A stretch of 64,000 bases of DNA from an uncultured Dokdonia sp. Its GTDB lineage: Bacteria > Bacteroidota > Bacteroidia > Flavobacteriales > Flavobacteriaceae. This document shows, piece after piece, positions 4,430-11,304 of this stretch. A program made the translations under genes and the position numbers. The stretch covers positions 325 to 64,324 of the forward strand of contig NZ_CANLOB010000014.1 in NCBI RefSeq assembly GCF_947492815.1, in the 5' to 3' direction. The notes beneath the pieces are model-generated. The model did no database searches. It was not told the DNA's origin and worked only from the letters and a program-made list of their open reading frames with translations. Within the stretch, counting starts at the first letter, position 1. Every line of letters begins with the position of its first letter.

Positions 4430-5656
4430 CTATGCTGTTTTTGAACCTTTTTTAAGCTCTATCACAGTAATTTCTGGCCATATCCCAACTCTTCCAGGAA
4501 AAGCTAAATATCCAAATCCTCTATTCACATTTATATATTGTCCTTTTTCTTCATATATGCCTGCCCAACGTTTATAACGCCATTTTACAGGACTCCATTT
4601 TATCCAACCAGGGATTTCTATTCCAAATTGCATCCCATGAGTGTGGCCACTTAAAGTTAAGTGAAAGTGATCTTTATGCGGGACTACTTCATGATCCCAA
4701 TGCGATGGATCATGGCTCAGCAATACTTTAAAATCATCTGAAGTAATGTTTCCTATAGCTTTATTAAGGTCTCCTTCTTGTTTAAAACCAGCTCCCCAGT
4801 TTTCTACACCCACTAGTGCTATACGTTGCCCATCTTTTTCGATAAAACGACTATCATTAAGAATTAAATCAAACCCAATTTCATTGTGTATATCTTTTAA
4901 TCTCTGAAAGTTATTTTGCTTTTCTTCTTTAGAACTCCAACCCCTATAATAATCACCATAATCATGATTTCCTAAAATTGAATACATTCCATCTTTTGCA
5001 CTTAGTTTAGAAAAAACATCTATCCAAGGTTCCATCTCACTAGCAAAATTATTCACCATATCTCCAGTAAAGAAAATTGCATCACTGTCTTGTTCATTAA
5101 TAAGATCTATAGCATAAGATACTTTTTCTTTATTATCAAAACTACCGCTATGAATATCACTTATCTGCGTGATTTGATAGCCATCAAAAGCATCTGGCAA
5201 ATCTTCAAAATGCAAGGTATATTTCAGTACTTTAAAATTATAACGTCCTTTAATAACCCCATAAAGAATAGAGGCAAACGGAACTGCCATTAAACCTAGA
5301 GCAATCTGACTTACAAATTTACGTCTGGAAGGAATTGAATAAGAAGTAGTCTTACCAGATAACTTATAATAGACACCTTCTACGAGTCGGAAGATATCTT
5401 CTCCAAACATCACAGCAATAAGAATGATTTTAGAGACTATCATAATAATAAATGTCACAATAAAAAACTGTGTCATTGCAGACCAACTACGTCTATCACC
5501 TGTAGCAACTTGAAAGATAAGTCCTCCTATGACAAGCGCTGTAATAAGAAAATATAAGATCGTTCCCCATTTTCCTTTTACTAAAAACCGAAAAGCCTGA
5601 TAGGCATATATATCAAGTGCAATAACAATTGCGATAAATAAAATGAAACGAACCAT
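4430..5656 (-). CDS. Membrane-anchored calcineurin-like metallophosphoesterase
   Basis: N-terminal TM helices; DIHSG, GDMVN, GNHDY, SHDP, GHTHG motifs. Confidence 0.9.
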   Translation of the reverse strand: MVRFILFIAIVIALDIYAYQAFRFLVKGKWGTILYFLITALVIGGLIFQVATGDRRSWSAMTQFFIVTFIIMIVSKIILIAVMFGEDIFRLVEGVYYKLSGKTTSYSIPSRRKFVSQIALGLMAVPFASILYGVIKGRYNFKVLKYTLHFEDLPDAFDGYQITQISDIHSGSFDNKEKVSYAIDLINEQDSDAIFFTGDMVNNFASEMEPWIDVFSKLSAKDGMYSILGNHDYGDYYRGWSSKEEKQNNFQRLKDIHNEIGFDLILNDSRFIEKDGQRIALVGVENWGAGFKQEGDLNKAIGNITSDDFKVLLSHDPSHWDHEVVPHKDHFHLTLSGHTHGMQFGIEIPGWIKWSPVKWRYKRWAGIYEEKGQYINVNRGFGYLAFPGRVGIWPEITVIELKKGSKTA

Positions 5657-5754
5657 TAAACAAATTTTAACAAAAATAAGATGTCCGTTCTGAGTGTGCT
5701 ATCTTTTCACGTTTATTTAACCAAATCCTAATCATAAATGGTATAATTTCTAGG

Positions 5755-5819
5755 TACGCTTTATCGCTTTGCTCTCCCTATGGTCGTGAATCTCACAAGA
5801 TCGATTTCGCGAAAGCGTA
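5755..5819. repeat. Miniature repeat element, family A copy 1 (ends TACGCTTT...AAAGCGTA)
   Basis: 65 bp; aligns by eye with 8686-8770 and with the reverse complement of 44429-44680. Confidence 0.75.
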
Positions 5820-5878
5820 TATATCATATCATTCATATTTTTGAACATCTTTCTTAAACACACCTAATTATAAAACGT

Positions 5879-7006
5879 TTATGATTTAAGAGCTCTTGCA
5901 AAATTATAGCTAGCCATCACAAGGTTTTCATAACTGTGAGCTATGGCTTTTTGAAGTGTCATAACTCCTGAAGTAATAGCAGTCGCATAGGTTAATCCTA
6001 GATCTTCTTGATCCTGTATAGATATATCGATACTCCCACAAAGAGCAGCTACAGGTATTTTATGTTTTTTTGCAGTTTCTAATACTCCGGAAATGGTCTT
6101 TCCTGAGATGGTTTGTTCATCCAATTGTCCTTCTCCAGTAATAATCCAATCGGCTTCTTGAACAGCTTCTTCAAAACCTGCCAATTCTTTTATCAGGTCA
6201 ATTCCAGAAGTAAGTGTTGCTTTTAAAAACACACAGCTTGCTACACCCATTCCTCCAGCAGCGCCGCCACCTTCAATTTCTTGCACATGATTATTTACAA
6301 GAGTATTCACTATAGATGCATAGTTTCTTAAGCCTTTATCTAATGCTAGTACCTCAGCTTCTGAGGCTCCTTTTTGTGATCCATACACATGCGCCGATCC
6401 ATTAGACCCATACAACGGATTTGTCACATCGCAAGCCACTAGAAATGTGATATCATGCAATTCTGGCAGTACTCTTGAATCATTTATGTGTGCTACATGG
6501 ATAAGGTTTGCTCCTATAGGAGACAATACGTTTCCTTGTGCATCTAAAAAATCATACCCCAAGGCATGTGCCATACCCATACCCGCATCACAAGTAGCAC
6601 TTCCTCCTATACCTAAAATAATCTTAGACGCTCCTTTTTGTATGGCATTTACAATAAGTTCTCCCGTACCATAGGTAGTTGTATACATGCAATTACGTTC
6701 CTCTTGATTCAGTAATTTTAATCCTGAGGCTTCTGCCATCTCTACAAAAGCAGTTTCAGAGGCTTCATTATATAAATAGCTGCCCTCTATTTTTCTAAAT
6801 AACGGATCATTTACCTCTACCCTCTGCGTATTCCCATTTAGATAATGACCTATGATTGCAATGGTACCATCCCCTCCATCTGCTAGTGGCTTTTTAATAA
6901 TTTCGGCGTTTTGAAAAACACGTTGAAGTCCTTCTTCTACAGCATCACAGAATTCAAAACCTGATAGCGAGTCTTTGTATTTATCAGGAGCGATTACAAA
7001 TTTCAT
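5879..7006 (-). CDS. glxK: Glycerate kinase (GlxK/GarK family)
   Basis: IAPDKYKDSL, PLADGGDGT, EMAEASGL, GIGGSAT, GAAGG, ITGEG motifs. Confidence 0.9.
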   Translation of the reverse strand: MKFVIAPDKYKDSLSGFEFCDAVEEGLQRVFQNAEIIKKPLADGGDGTIAIIGHYLNGNTQRVEVNDPLFRKIEGSYLYNEASETAFVEMAEASGLKLLNQEERNCMYTTTYGTGELIVNAIQKGASKIILGIGGSATCDAGMGMAHALGYDFLDAQGNVLSPIGANLIHVAHINDSRVLPELHDITFLVACDVTNPLYGSNGSAHVYGSQKGASEAEVLALDKGLRNYASIVNTLVNNHVQEIEGGGAAGGMGVASCVFLKATLTSGIDLIKELAGFEEAVQEADWIITGEGQLDEQTISGKTISGVLETAKKHKIPVAALCGSIDISIQDQEDLGLTYATAITSGVMTLQKAIAHSYENLVMASYNFARALKS

Positions 7007-7016
7007 TTCTTTTATT

Positions 7017-8621
7017 TTATCCTAACAAGGTAGGTAACATCAAACTAAATATTAAAATACATACAAAATATCCTACGAGTAATAGTACTTCTTTTTTACC
7101 AGAATGGTACACCACTTCCACATTTTCTTTCACCTCTCTTTTAATAATATAACTCACCCCTAATGCTACAACAATGGTCATAATACATCCTAATGCATTC
7201 CACCAGAACCAGAATATTTCGGGTACATATAGCCATAAGTAGGCATTAAATAGTACGCCAACTACAATACCAATATTTGCTCCTAAGGCATGTGTTTTTT
7301 TAGTAAGGATTGCTAGCATAAATACCGCTAAGATGGGGCCATAAAAAACAGAACTTATTTTATTGATCACCTCAATGACTGTTCCTTCTATATTCCCTGC
7401 AAAAAAAGCAAAAAACAAGCATACAAGACCCCAAAATACAGACAAAAGTCTTGACGTACTTATATACTTTTTATTATCCATATTTGGTTGGAAACGCTTT
7501 ATAAAATCTTCCATAGTCACAGCCGAAAGTGAATTAACTGTAGAGCTCAAGGAAGACATTGCTGCCGACATAATAGCGACTATCAAAATACCTATCACTC
7601 CATTAGGCAAATATTGAATAATAAAAACGGGCACCATCAAATCTGCTTTTTTCCCTTCCAGTGTTCCAATATTAGCTTGATATACATTTTCCATAGCTAC
7701 TTGAAAACTTGTATCCTGAAATAACAATGTTCCTAGTACTAACCCCATAATACAATACACCAACGTAATTGGGAATCTAAAAAGGCCATTGGCTAATAAT
7801 AGCTTCTTAAGAGTAGGCATATTCTTAGCAGATAGTAATCGTTGTGATTGTGTTTGATCAGTTCCATAATAGGAAGCATACAAAAAGAATCCTCCTATCA
7901 CCATAGGCCAGAATCCAAATGCATCACTCCCATCAGCATTATTAAATCCCCATTTAGAGAAATCTACCGTGTTGATTCTATCTTTATCTACATGCGTCAA
8001 GAAATTATCAAATCCACCCAACTCACTTAATCCATAAAAAAGACATATAACAATGCCTAGAAATAATATTGTCATTTGTATCACATCTCCCCAAATAACA
8101 GCTTTCATTCCGCCTTGAAAAGAGTAAATCATGGTAATGATTCCTATAATAGCTACTGATATCCAGAAATCTAATCCGATCGTTGCTTGTAAAATAAGTG
8201 CCATGGTATACACCATAACACCTGTTGCTACAGAGCGACTTATTTGAAATACAAAACTGATTAACAATCTTGAGGATGCATCAAATCGTTTTTCTAAGTA
8301 CTCGTACACACTTACGATACCTGATTTATATAGGCTAGGCAATACTGCAATAAGTAAGAAAGCCATAGCGAGTGGCACTCCAAACTCATAGGTAAGCCAT
8401 TGCAATCCTCCACCATCTTTTAAACCTACAAATGCAGGAGCAGATATAAAACTAATGGCAGATAATTGTGTTGCCATCGTAGACAGACTTAATGGCAACC
8501 AAGAGATACTTCTACCCCCAAGAAAGTAATCACTAGAGGTTTTATTTTCCTTAAAAACATATCCAAGTCCCAAAAATCCTATTAAGTAAATAACAATAAC
8601 TAGATAGTCTAAATAATTCAT
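7017..8621 (-). CDS. Sodium:solute symporter (SSS family)
   Basis: About 13 TM helices; DYFLGGR, YEYLEKRF, GGMKAVIWGD, AAMSSLSS motifs. Confidence 0.9.
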   Translation of the reverse strand: MNYLDYLVIVIYLIGFLGLGYVFKENKTSSDYFLGGRSISWLPLSLSTMATQLSAISFISAPAFVGLKDGGGLQWLTYEFGVPLAMAFLLIAVLPSLYKSGIVSVYEYLEKRFDASSRLLISFVFQISRSVATGVMVYTMALILQATIGLDFWISVAIIGIITMIYSFQGGMKAVIWGDVIQMTILFLGIVICLFYGLSELGGFDNFLTHVDKDRINTVDFSKWGFNNADGSDAFGFWPMVIGGFFLYASYYGTDQTQSQRLLSAKNMPTLKKLLLANGLFRFPITLVYCIMGLVLGTLLFQDTSFQVAMENVYQANIGTLEGKKADLMVPVFIIQYLPNGVIGILIVAIMSAAMSSLSSTVNSLSAVTMEDFIKRFQPNMDNKKYISTSRLLSVFWGLVCLFFAFFAGNIEGTVIEVINKISSVFYGPILAVFMLAILTKKTHALGANIGIVVGVLFNAYLWLYVPEIFWFWWNALGCIMTIVVALGVSYIIKREVKENVEVVYHSGKKEVLLLVGYFVCILIFSLMLPTLLG

Positions 8622-8685
8622 AATAGCTGATTATCAATTAGCTGTATACATTTGTTTCCTCATCCTAAAAAGGAGTATTCTTTCA

Positions 8686-8770
8686 TACGCTTTAACGTTT
8701 CACTCTTCCTAAGGTTGTGAATCTGCCTAACGACAGGCAGGTCTCGTAGGCTCAATTTCGCGAAAGCGCA
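8686..8770. repeat. Family A element copy 2 with internal CTGCC...GGCAGG insert
   Basis: Same ends and core as 5755-5819, plus about 20 bp TCTGCCTAACGACAGGCAGG between GTGAA and TCTC. Confidence 0.7.
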
Positions 8771-8787
8771 TATCATATATTTTAAAA

Positions 8788-10098
8788 TCATTCATGTAAT
8801 AAATCAATTAAAAGTGCTGCACTCCAAGAGAAATTATTTCCTCCATAAGCTCTACTATCTCCAGATGGCAACTCTTTTCTAGCATCAAAATATTCATAAA
8901 AACCATAAGTTTCTATAAGACTAATAGAATCCATTTTTACTGTATTTGCAGTTTCTTTAAAACCATATCGCTTGAGTCCTTTATAAAGAATCCAATTCAA
9001 ATTCATCCATATAGGACCTCGCCAATATTTTTTAGGATTATATAAAGTACTTGTTGGATCAAAAGAAGCACAGAGGTATTGCTCCTCTCCTCTAAATTTT
9101 TGTAACAATACGTTTAAAAGTTGTTTTGCCTGATCTTCATTAGGAATCCCAGCAAACAAAGGAGCAAAAGAAGAAGAGGTAATATAGGGCATGGGTTGAT
9201 CATTTCTCAAATCATAATAGATATAAGCTCCTAATGTCTCATCAAATAGTTTTTCATTAAACCTTGCTATACTTTTAGCTTGGCACTTTTTGAGATAAGC
9301 AATTTTTTCTTCATTATTCCCAATACGCTCATATAACGCTATTAAAGATTCATTAGATTTAATAAGCATTGCATTAAAAAGAGGATCTTGTATTAATAAG
9401 GGAGAATGTACTGCTATTTTTTGATCGTTATACTGATGAGATTTTGCAATTTCGATAATATGCAAATAGTGATTGTATTCTCTATTTGAAGGTCTTTGCG
9501 ATGGGTCAACATGTGTAGTATCTCTTCTTTCAAAAGTATATTCAGGAGCATCAATACCTTCCCATATCTCATCCCAAACTGGAGAATTATCTGTTCCCGA
9601 TTCCCAATTGTGATAGATATAGACTAATCCTTCTTGATGAGGATCTCTGTTTTTATAGAAATACACATGATTATCAAATACCTTATCAATATGTACTGTT
9701 ATAAAAGAGAGCATATCACTATCATCTTTTGAAATACGCATCATTTCTTCAAGCACAAATCCCAATACAGGAGGCTGCGTCATTCCGGTAGTTTTATACT
9801 TCTTTGAAGATAAGGGATGTAAATGAGATTGATGAAAATCTGCTCCAGGAAAATAGGTATCACTCTCATTATGAAAAACAATATGAGGAACAAATCCATT
9901 TTCCCATTGCGCATCTAATAATGTGGCAATTTCTTGCTTTGCTTTTGTGGTATTATAATGTGCTAATCCTATCGCAATAAATCCTGAATCCCATTTCCAC
10001 TGAAAGGGATATAGTCCTTTACTTGGAATGGTAAATCCACCTTCTTGATAGTTTGCATCTAATACCTGTTTTGCTCTTTCTAGTAACGTTTCTTTCAT
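8788..10098 (-). CDS. GH63-like glycoside hydrolase (mannosylglycerate/glucosylglycerate hydrolase type)
   Basis: QWKWDSGF, WESGTDNSP, YWRGPIW, FYEYF, FSWSAA motifs; start moved to ATG at 10098. Confidence 0.8.
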   Translation of the reverse strand: MKETLLERAKQVLDANYQEGGFTIPSKGLYPFQWKWDSGFIAIGLAHYNTTKAKQEIATLLDAQWENGFVPHIVFHNESDTYFPGADFHQSHLHPLSSKKYKTTGMTQPPVLGFVLEEMMRISKDDSDMLSFITVHIDKVFDNHVYFYKNRDPHQEGLVYIYHNWESGTDNSPVWDEIWEGIDAPEYTFERRDTTHVDPSQRPSNREYNHYLHIIEIAKSHQYNDQKIAVHSPLLIQDPLFNAMLIKSNESLIALYERIGNNEEKIAYLKKCQAKSIARFNEKLFDETLGAYIYYDLRNDQPMPYITSSSFAPLFAGIPNEDQAKQLLNVLLQKFRGEEQYLCASFDPTSTLYNPKKYWRGPIWMNLNWILYKGLKRYGFKETANTVKMDSISLIETYGFYEYFDARKELPSGDSRAYGGNNFSWSAALLIDLLHE

Positions 10099-10222
10099 AT
10101 ATAACACACTTCAAAAAAAGATGGCTCGTCCATATTATGTATTGCATCTTCCATATTTTTAAGGAGTACTTAAAATTATAAGAATATCTAATTGGCATTA
10201 CAGAAATAGCTTTAAAAACCTA

Positions 10223-10236
10223 TTCAAACGTTTGCG
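10223..10236. promoter_or_regulatory. Candidate LacI-family operator
   Basis: TTCAAACGTTTGCG with a perfect CAAACGTTTG palindrome, between the divergent GH63 and lacI genes. Confidence 0.55.
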
Positions 10237-10278
10237 GGAATAATTGCAAAATTCTTTTTTTGACTTATCTTTAATTTT

Positions 10279-11304
10279 ATGAATAAACGAAAAGCAACGA
10301 CACTTAAAGAAATTGCAAAAAAGTTAGACATCTCTATTTCTACGGCATCAAGAGCATTAAATAACCACCCGGATATTAGTGATGCTACCAAAGAAAAGGT
10401 ACAGCAACTTGCAGAAAAACTACACTATTCTCCTAACTTATTTGCGCAGGGTTTTAGAACACAACGAAGTCATATCTTAGGGGTAATTGTTCCTAATATT
10501 GCGCACTATTTTACCTCTACGATTCTAAAAGGCATTCTTAAAGAAGCAGAAACAAAAGGTTATAAAGTCATTGTCTCAGAGTCTAACAACAATGAAAACA
10601 AACAATCAGAAATGCTACGCACTATGAGTCAGTTTGGAGTAGATGGTATCTTATTAGCTTTATCACGTAAAACAACATCTGTAGATAGTATTCTGAACAC
10701 TTTAGATACAGTTCCGTTGGTGCTTTTTGATAAGGTCTCTCATAAAATTCCATGTACACAAGTAGTAGTAGATGAAGAAATAGCTGCTTTTAATGCGATA
10801 GAACATCTCATTAATACTGGTAAAAAACGTATTGCTATTATAAAAGAAACAGAAAACTCATTCAATTCAGAAAAAAGATTTGCTGGATACTTAAGAGCTC
10901 TCAAAGAACATAATATTGAAGTTGATAAAAAAATAATCTTAAGCACAGAAGATGTTTCATTATACAAAGGGCGTATGATGACCAATATATTATTAAGTCT
11001 TAAAGAAAGACCTGATGCAATTTTTGCGATTACAGATACGGCTGCTATTGGAGCTATTAAAGCCTTGCATAAATACAACATAAAAATACCTGAAGAGATT
11101 GCTGTTGTAGGGTTTAGTAATTCTATACATGCTACCATCATACAACCATCACTTACGACTGTAGATCAACCTGGTGAAAAAATCGGAAAAACAGCTGTCA
11201 TGTATTTAATCAAAGAGATTGAAAGCAACAAAAATGAAATAACCACAAAAACAGTTACCGTAAAAACACATCTTATCGTTAGAGATTCTTCTTTTAAAGT
11301 ATAG
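10279..11304 (+). CDS. LacI-family transcriptional regulator
   Basis: TLKEIAKKLDISISTASRALN HTH, hinge YSPNLFAQG, periplasmic-binding-protein-like C-terminus. Confidence 0.95.
   Translation: MNKRKATTLKEIAKKLDISISTASRALNNHPDISDATKEKVQQLAEKLHYSPNLFAQGFRTQRSHILGVIVPNIAHYFTSTILKGILKEAETKGYKVIVSESNNNENKQSEMLRTMSQFGVDGILLALSRKTTSVDSILNTLDTVPLVLFDKVSHKIPCTQVVVDEEIAAFNAIEHLINTGKKRIAIIKETENSFNSEKRFAGYLRALKEHNIEVDKKIILSTEDVSLYKGRMMTNILLSLKERPDAIFAITDTAAIGAIKALHKYNIKIPEEIAVVGFSNSIHATIIQPSLTTVDQPGEKIGKTAVMYLIKEIESNKNEITTKTVTVKTHLIVRDSSFKV

Follow-up and report, generated by a model that had tools for sequence, protein, structure and literature searches.

A predicted operon for uptake and cleavage of mannosylglycerate and/or glucosylglycerate in a Dokdonia genome, a reduced form of the flavobacterial digeneaside cluster

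Mannosylglycerate is a photosynthate of red algae, also called "digeneaside", and we know of no experimental demonstration of how heterotrophs consume either this solute or its glucosyl counterpart, glucosylglycerate. The latter ranks among the major solutes in Prochlorococcus and marine Synechococcus, according to a passage in PMC11631117 that cites Klähn 2010. A gene cluster for the former has already been predicted: in the supplement of Kappelmann et al. 2018 (ISME J, PMC6298971), the arrangement LacI::TBDT::GH63::SSS::glycerate kinase (TBDT, TonB-dependent receptor; SSS, sodium:solute symporter) is listed as a predicted "digeneaside PUL" (polysaccharide utilisation locus) in 11 of 53 North Sea Flavobacteriia, with examples in Cellulophaga (PULs 44 and 55), Maribacter and Zobellia. 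This assignment, which is bioinformatic alone, is said to follow the genome analysis of Zobellia galactanivorans, at least as relayed by a Maribacter paper (PMC8072126), which cites homologous digeneaside genes in Z. galactanivorans and Maribacter. Here we describe a locus of this kind in an uncultured Dokdonia sp. (Flavobacteriaceae; RefSeq assembly GCF_947492815.1, contig NZ_CANLOB010000014.1), within a stretch of 64,000 nucleotides (positions 325 to 64,324 of the forward strand, hereafter the window). Judging from its sequence, the locus is probably (we would say with a probability of about 80%) a LacI-repressed operon for the uptake of mannosylglycerate and/or glucosylglycerate, their cleavage in the cytoplasm and the phosphorylation of the glycerate. 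It is a reduced member of a predicted cluster type that has already been published, thus a sound annotation and no new system. Since the prediction itself is in the literature, the value of the present analysis lies in its confirmation, in an operator consensus and in the description of a reduced variant, which makes a clean and compact candidate for the consumption of either solute by a heterotroph.

The likeness to the published digeneaside loci extends to the gene order (a divergent LacI gene, then GH63, SSS and glycerate kinase), to the absence of SusD and to the substrate logic, in which mannosylglycerate would yield mannose and glycerate, and the glycerate would become phosphoglycerate. 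However, the published loci are headed by a TonB-dependent receptor of non-SusC type, which is missing between lacI and GH63 in the window and has no orthologue in the genome, whereas the operon of the window contains a dispersed repeat. In Escherichia coli, MngR, MngA and MngB likewise provide a repressor-controlled import of mannosylglycerate and release glycerate for a glycerate kinase, using a transporter of the phosphotransferase system with a phosphorylated intermediate, a GH38 alpha-mannosidase and a GntR-type regulator. These are entirely different proteins, and the two systems are analogous, not homologous.

We searched 300 sampled genera of the family for GH63 and compared 40 loci from 40 other genera, each over about 15 kb. 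An orthologue of GH63 was found in 43 of the 300 genera, about one in seven. Within the genus of the window, 8 of 30 other genomes have one, so that the distribution is patchy. Wherever the related loci were compared, an SSS gene followed GH63 (40 of 40; split in one of them, with another gene in between in about ten), and a glycerate kinase gene followed SSS in 36. The linkage between these three genes is far above chance. Of the 40 loci, 23 also have a LacI orthologue in divergent orientation, and in 22 the operon begins with a TonB-dependent receptor (about 890 aa) that has no SusD partner.

The GH63 protein matches PF22422 (MGH1-like_GH, an (alpha/alpha)6 domain) over the whole profile (positions 1-356 of 356), with 279 bits for a cut-off of 27. 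Its top solved homologue is the mannosylglycerate hydrolase TTHA0978 of Thermus thermophilus HB8 (2z07, 4wva-c; E 3.9e-86, 293 bits, residues 10-433 of 439), followed in the PDB by the glucosylglycerate hydrolase (GgH) of Mycobacterium (5ohc/6g3n; E ~1e-59 to 1e-60), which belongs to the same fold family but is a more distant relative (201-208 bits). The resemblance to the Thermus enzyme includes a similar size (420 aa there, 436 aa here), the lack of a signal peptide, the same catalytic Asp/Glu and binding residues, and a Phe at the loop-E position right before the conserved Ser-Trp. The protein belongs to the mannosylglycerate/glucosylglycerate hydrolase group, nearer to the Thermus type, without being strictly orthologous to the mycobacterial enzyme.

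The active site can be followed residue by residue, since the residues of the mycobacterial enzyme were mapped onto the GH63 of the window through a HMMER alignment (the numbering used here is that of the 439-aa reading). In M. hassiacum GgH, the catalytic acid is Asp182 and the base Glu419; the hexose is contacted by Trp42, Asp43, Gln115, Gly180, Tyr375 and Trp376, and the glycerate, in the +1 subsite, by Tyr36, Trp40, Tyr88, Arg216 and Tyr375 (PMC6608630). All these crystallographic contacts with hexose and glycerate are kept in the window. The catalytic pair corresponds to Asp173 and Glu405 and the glycerate site to Tyr33, Trp37, Tyr85, Arg205 and Tyr361, all of which are invariant in 41 of 41 flavobacterial orthologues, as is the full set to which they belong (Tyr33, Trp37, Trp39, Asp40, Tyr85, Gln111, Trp168, Gly171, Asp173, Arg205, Tyr211, Tyr361, Trp362, Trp367 and Glu405). 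We would therefore expect the protein to be a mannosylglycerate/glucosylglycerate hydrolase with an inverting mechanism. As for the choice between mannose and glucose, the residue aligned to Gln433/434 in loop E of the mycobacterial enzyme is Asn425 in the window; 35 of the 41 orthologues have Asn at this position and 6 have Asp. We dropped this glutamine as a discriminator, because the numbering of the paper and that of the PDB are one residue apart and a PDB search with a short query gave the Thermus chain alone, and we assign no preference from the sequence.

One could argue instead that the enzyme acts on an alpha-glucoside without glycerate, such as kojibiose or nigerose (as does YgjK of E. 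coli), a trehalose-like sugar or glucosylglycerol, its link with a glycerate kinase gene being unrelated. There are indeed weak Pfam matches to Trehalase and Glyco_hydro_63, the orthologues are publicly annotated as "Trehalase", and YgjK gives a partial match. But YgjK and the trehalases align with the C-terminal part alone, at E values of 1e-8 or worse (for YgjK, ~1e-8 over the C-terminal 200 residues), as opposed to a full-length match at 1e-86 with the mannosylglycerate hydrolase, and the Arg and three Tyr that bind glycerate do not vary. Moreover, glucosylglycerol and glucosylglycolate are not cleaved by the mycobacterial enzyme, whose site is the same (PMC6608630), and 36 of the 40 loci, across genera, have the linked glycerate kinase gene. 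We find this alternative extremely unlikely.

The alignment of the 41 orthologues places the start of GH63 at the ATG at 10098 (MKETLL...), and not at the GTG at 10107 given in the list of open reading frames (ORFs). The match with the Thermus catalytic domain begins at residue 10 of the 439-aa reading, that is residue 7 from the ATG, and none of the orthologues in the alignment has a hydrophobic N-terminus. With a catalytic domain that starts so close to the N-terminus (among the first ten residues), and no such leader in any orthologue, the enzyme is predicted to be cytoplasmic. An earlier note on this DNA, made from the sequence alone, had described the GH63 as devoid of a signal peptide and of the mannosylglycerate or glucosylglycerate hydrolase type; the N-terminal alignments agree with the first statement, and the full-length homology to both enzymes, with catalytic and glycerate residues kept, bears out the second.

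The product of the SSS gene is a full-length member of its family (TC 2.A.21), with 170 bits against SSF (PF00474) and 255 bits against TIGR00813 (cut-off 184). Among solved relatives, NIS (182 bits), SMCT1 (166) and SMVT (165) come ahead of SGLT1 (142) and SiaT (141). The symporter is thus nearest to the anion and carboxylate carriers of SLC5, and not to the glucose carriers, which would fit a glycoside bearing a carboxylate without proving it; its presumed substrate, judged by the company that the gene keeps, is a glycosyl-glycerate. The glycerate kinase is also matched over its full length (PF02595, 452 bits, cut-off 23; TIGR00045, 430 bits, cut-off 168), with 3cwc, glycerate kinase 2, as top PDB match (E 1.2e-80). 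Both equivalog models that separate a 2-phosphoglycerate from a 3-phosphoglycerate product score below their cut-offs for this protein. In passing, two subtypes of SSS are present in the related operons (L032-L071), one of ~534 aa (73-85% identity to that of the window) and one of ~548 aa (51-55%), and the two alternate along the GH63 tree, even between sister loci such as L042 and L043. Inside an otherwise conserved operon, the gene for the transporter has been swapped repeatedly.

Additional genes in the related operons give some indication of the products. In 4 of the sampled genera, and in 2 genomes from the genus of the window, the gene right after glxK, the glycerate kinase gene, encodes a type-I mannose-6-phosphate isomerase (above the TIGR00218 cut-off). 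ROK-family kinase genes are present in 2 loci, and an enzyme of the GH13_18 sucrose-phosphorylase family, whose nearest solved relative is a glucosylglycerol phosphorylase, in 2 (L047 and L053). Isomerase, kinase and GH13_18 would all fit mannose or glucose, together with glycerate, as products.

Two further observations concern lineages with larger operons. Locus L053 (G029:C2) combines a TonB receptor, a GT4 glycosyltransferase, GH63, GH13_18, SSS, glycerate kinase and a GntP permease; the GT4 resembles mannosylglucosylglycerate synthase (408 bits with NF041101, whose cut-off is 640), and the locus is possibly a route for mannosylglucosylglycerate or for the phosphorolysis of glucosylglycerate. 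GH63 and SSS are separated in 8 of the 40 loci by a gene for a GNAT acetyltransferase of about 200 aa (e.g. L032:6370-6990). One may then wonder whether the enzyme really acts on some larger or different glycoside of glycerate, for instance mannosylglucosylglycerate, from which GH63 would remove the hexose linked to glycerate. The association of GH63 with the GT4 and GH13_18 in L053, and with GH13_18 in L047, speaks for it, and the acetyltransferase hints at a modified substrate in some lineages. However, GT4, GH13_18 and GNAT genes are all absent from the window and its genome, and the active site of the solved mycobacterial relative closes over one hexose and a glycerate (PMC6608630), every residue that lines it being conserved here. 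For the operon of the window, we regard such a larger or different glycoside as very improbable.

The two characterised relatives of GH63 serve purposes other than scavenging. In Thermus, which has the synthase MpgS, the enzyme degrades a solute of the cell's own making, and the role of M. hassiacum GgH is in the recovery from nitrogen starvation (PMC6608630), whereas the gene of the window is part of an operon with an importer and no synthesis genes were found. This raises the possibility that the operon recycles a self-made compatible solute, the SSS protein re-importing what leaks out. In favour of such recycling, both characterised relatives act on an endogenous solute (PMC6608630, PMC5381378), and the operon of L053 includes the GT4 resembling mannosylglucosylglycerate synthase. 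On the other hand, MpgS (PF09488) was not found in this genome, which is 99.97% complete, although it was found in the Thermus control; the best match in the genome to NF010496 (which we take to be PRK13915, glucosyl-3-phosphoglycerate synthase) has 54 bits, below the cut-off of 262, and nothing in the genome matches TIGR01486 (MPGP) above its cut-off. In addition, a dedicated importer is always linked, most relatives have an outer-membrane TonB receptor as well, and a LacI repressor with its operator layout is typical of catabolic operons. We think that recycling is highly improbable here, and that the import of an external solute is favoured, because of the lack of recognisable synthesis genes, the obligatory transporter, the TonB receptor of the relatives and the control by LacI.

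The pathway that we propose for this import would run as follows. The anionic, disaccharide-like solute would cross the outer membrane, presumably through porins or a generic receptor, and would be taken up by the SSS protein together with Na+. The signal-less, inverting GH63 would split it in the cytoplasm into D-glycerate and mannose or glucose; glycerate kinase would convert the glycerate into 2- or 3-phosphoglycerate, which would enter lower glycolysis, and the hexose would be processed by a kinase and an isomerase encoded elsewhere. That the solute is mannosylglycerate or glucosylglycerate, and that a phototroph is its source, are inferences.

The LacI-family protein has an N-terminal LacI helix-turn-helix (PF00356) and a Peripla_BP_3/1 domain for binding a sugar effector, CcpA and PurR being its best solved relatives. 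The spacer between the divergent genes contains a single site, the CG-centred palindrome CAAACGTTTG, which lies 45 nt before the ATG of lacI and ~120 nt before that of GH63, the minus strand over the whole site reading CCGCAAACGTTTGA. As a 10-mer, CAAACGTTTG is no more frequent in this AT-rich genome than chance would have it (6 copies, 5.6 expected), but the 12-mer CGCAAACGTTTG has 3 copies where 0.32 are expected. Comparison gives the stronger evidence: GCAAACGTTTGC, with at most one mismatch, is present in the spacer between lacI and the operon in 22 of 23 related loci with a LacI gene. The site fits the consensus CCGCAAACGTTTGC; in the relatives, the first structural gene mostly starts 85-132 nt further on, and there is often a second AAACGTT element 12 bp away. 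By analogy with the behaviour of the family, LacI would bind the palindrome when the substrate is absent, repressing the operon and probably its own gene too, and the inducer would be the solute or one of its products.

The two other copies of the 12-mer do not enlarge this picture. One (C22:1656) is located inside an ORF. The other (C1:529561; locus L090, ~5562) is upstream of pyruvate kinase and of an ORF of 171 aa that belongs to no known family. We rejected an extension of the regulon to this pyruvate kinase operon, because five genomes of the same genus have a conserved LacI-type palindrome there, including one (G268) that has neither the module nor its LacI; the site probably belongs to another regulator, likely a second member of the LacI family that controls lower glycolysis. 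In the window, a further CG-centred palindrome, AGTAACGTTTCT, which is weaker, lies at 10082-10093, just within the start of the GH63 coding sequence, and could be an auxiliary operator or a product of chance.

The operon of the window is distinguished from most of its relatives by what it lacks. There is no room for a TonB receptor between lacI and GH63, whose spacer is only 180 nt long, and no isomerase or kinase gene is linked to the operon, the only type-I mannose-6-phosphate isomerase gene of the genome being on another contig. The same reduced layout occupies the same chromosomal site in two sister species (GH63 identity 95% and 73%), and two other genomes of the genus have the full form, with receptor and isomerase, at another site. 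In G268, a single type-I mannose-6-phosphate isomerase gene is located between the same metallophosphoesterase and ABC ATPase flanks (L089, G268:C3:1120000-1130000, 5138-6106), in place of the four-gene module, which is thus an insertion or deletion within the genus. We considered that this isomerase gene might be a remnant of the module. In total, G268 has two type-I isomerase genes and genome G329 three, all of them ~42% identical to the sole copy of the Dokdonia genome studied here.

Several points weigh against the operon that we propose, and the reader should have them together. A literature search found no enzyme, growth, expression or genetic test of any flavobacterial member of the cluster type. 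With NF047898, the equivalog model for glucosylglycerate hydrolase, GH63 scores 313 bits where the cut-off is 550. No orthologue of the TonB receptor of the relatives came out of a genome-wide search, the best match being a generic N-terminal similarity over ~250 residues at ~28-35% identity, and the operon includes no gene for a hexose kinase or isomerase. As regards transcription, the Bacteroidota -7 motif TAnnTTTG has one-mismatch matches alone, hence no clear promoter, and the strong hairpin of the repeat located between GH63 and SSS could uncouple the transcription of these two genes.

With these points in mind, the earlier claim that the locus encodes the import, hydrolysis and phosphorylation of a glycosyl-glycerate is still the best-supported reading, backed by the homology of GH63, its kept residues, the linkage to glycerate kinase and the absence of synthesis genes. 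The note had, however, called the route complete: its three steps are all supported, but the genes for handling the hexose and the TonB receptor are missing here. One might see in the form without receptor and isomerase a functional minimal version that takes up picocyanobacterial glucosylglycerate, and not the digeneaside of red algae, by the SSS protein alone. We consider this idea unlikely; if it were true, the two interchangeable SSS subtypes would mark different solute preferences, and there would be a defined and testable oceanic sink for glucosylglycerate.

The coordinates of the features are collected in Table 1. All four genes are placed and oriented as the earlier note had them, the three on the minus strand being tightly packed and lacI divergent from them (window ORFs and profile matches), and the palindromic operator that it had noticed between GH63 and lacI is the one conserved in the related loci.

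Table 1. Positions in the window of the genes, the predicted operator and the repeats of the locus
Feature	Position	Strand	Basis and remarks
GH63 MGH1-like glycoside hydrolase	8788-10098	-	436 aa; PF22422, PDB homologues, orthologue alignment
Sodium:solute symporter (SSS/SLC5), predicted inner-membrane importer	7017-8621	-	PF00474, TIGR00813
Class-I glycerate kinase (GlxK/GarK family)	5879-7006	-	PF02595, TIGR00045
LacI-family transcriptional repressor, divergent from the operon	10279-11304	+	PF00356 and Peripla_BP_3/1
LacI-type operator, predicted	10224-10237	.	Core palindrome CAAACGTTTG at 10225-10234; conserved in relatives
REP/MITE-like repeat in the GH63-SSS gap	8675-8790	-	Direct repeat of the copy 3' of glxK
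REP/MITE-like repeat, second copy, just past the glxK stop	5750-5835	-	Repeat-family matches

The gap between SSS and glxK is 10 nt, that between GH63 and SSS 166 nt; in most other genera, the latter is 30 nt or less. By profile matches, a metallophosphoesterase and a thioredoxin gene flank the locus on one side and an ABC ATPase gene on the other; these genes are outside the module, because they are also neighbours in a genome of the same genus that does not have it. A scan of the window with Rfam gave zero matches, and scans for sigma-70 promoters and terminators, models that do not apply to Bacteroidota, were at background level.

The repeat that fills the GH63-SSS gap belongs to a family with 107 blastn-short matches on 35 contigs of this genome. 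It has terminal inverted repeats, TACGCTTTCGCG...AAAGCGTA, and its RNA folds as a long hairpin (-31.8 kcal/mol); the copy in the gap contains an extra internal hairpin, CTGCCTGTCGTTAGGCAG. This copy is also present at the orthologous locus of the sister species G319 (the 95%-identical one), with 89% identity over 116 nt.

Finally, a second and more distant GH63 clade (L061-L071; 52-57% identity) has the succession GH63-SSS-GlxK without LacI, and most of these loci are flanked by a divergent gene for a SIS-domain protein (GKRP/MurQ-like) and by a convergent pair encoding DUF4249 and a TonB receptor.

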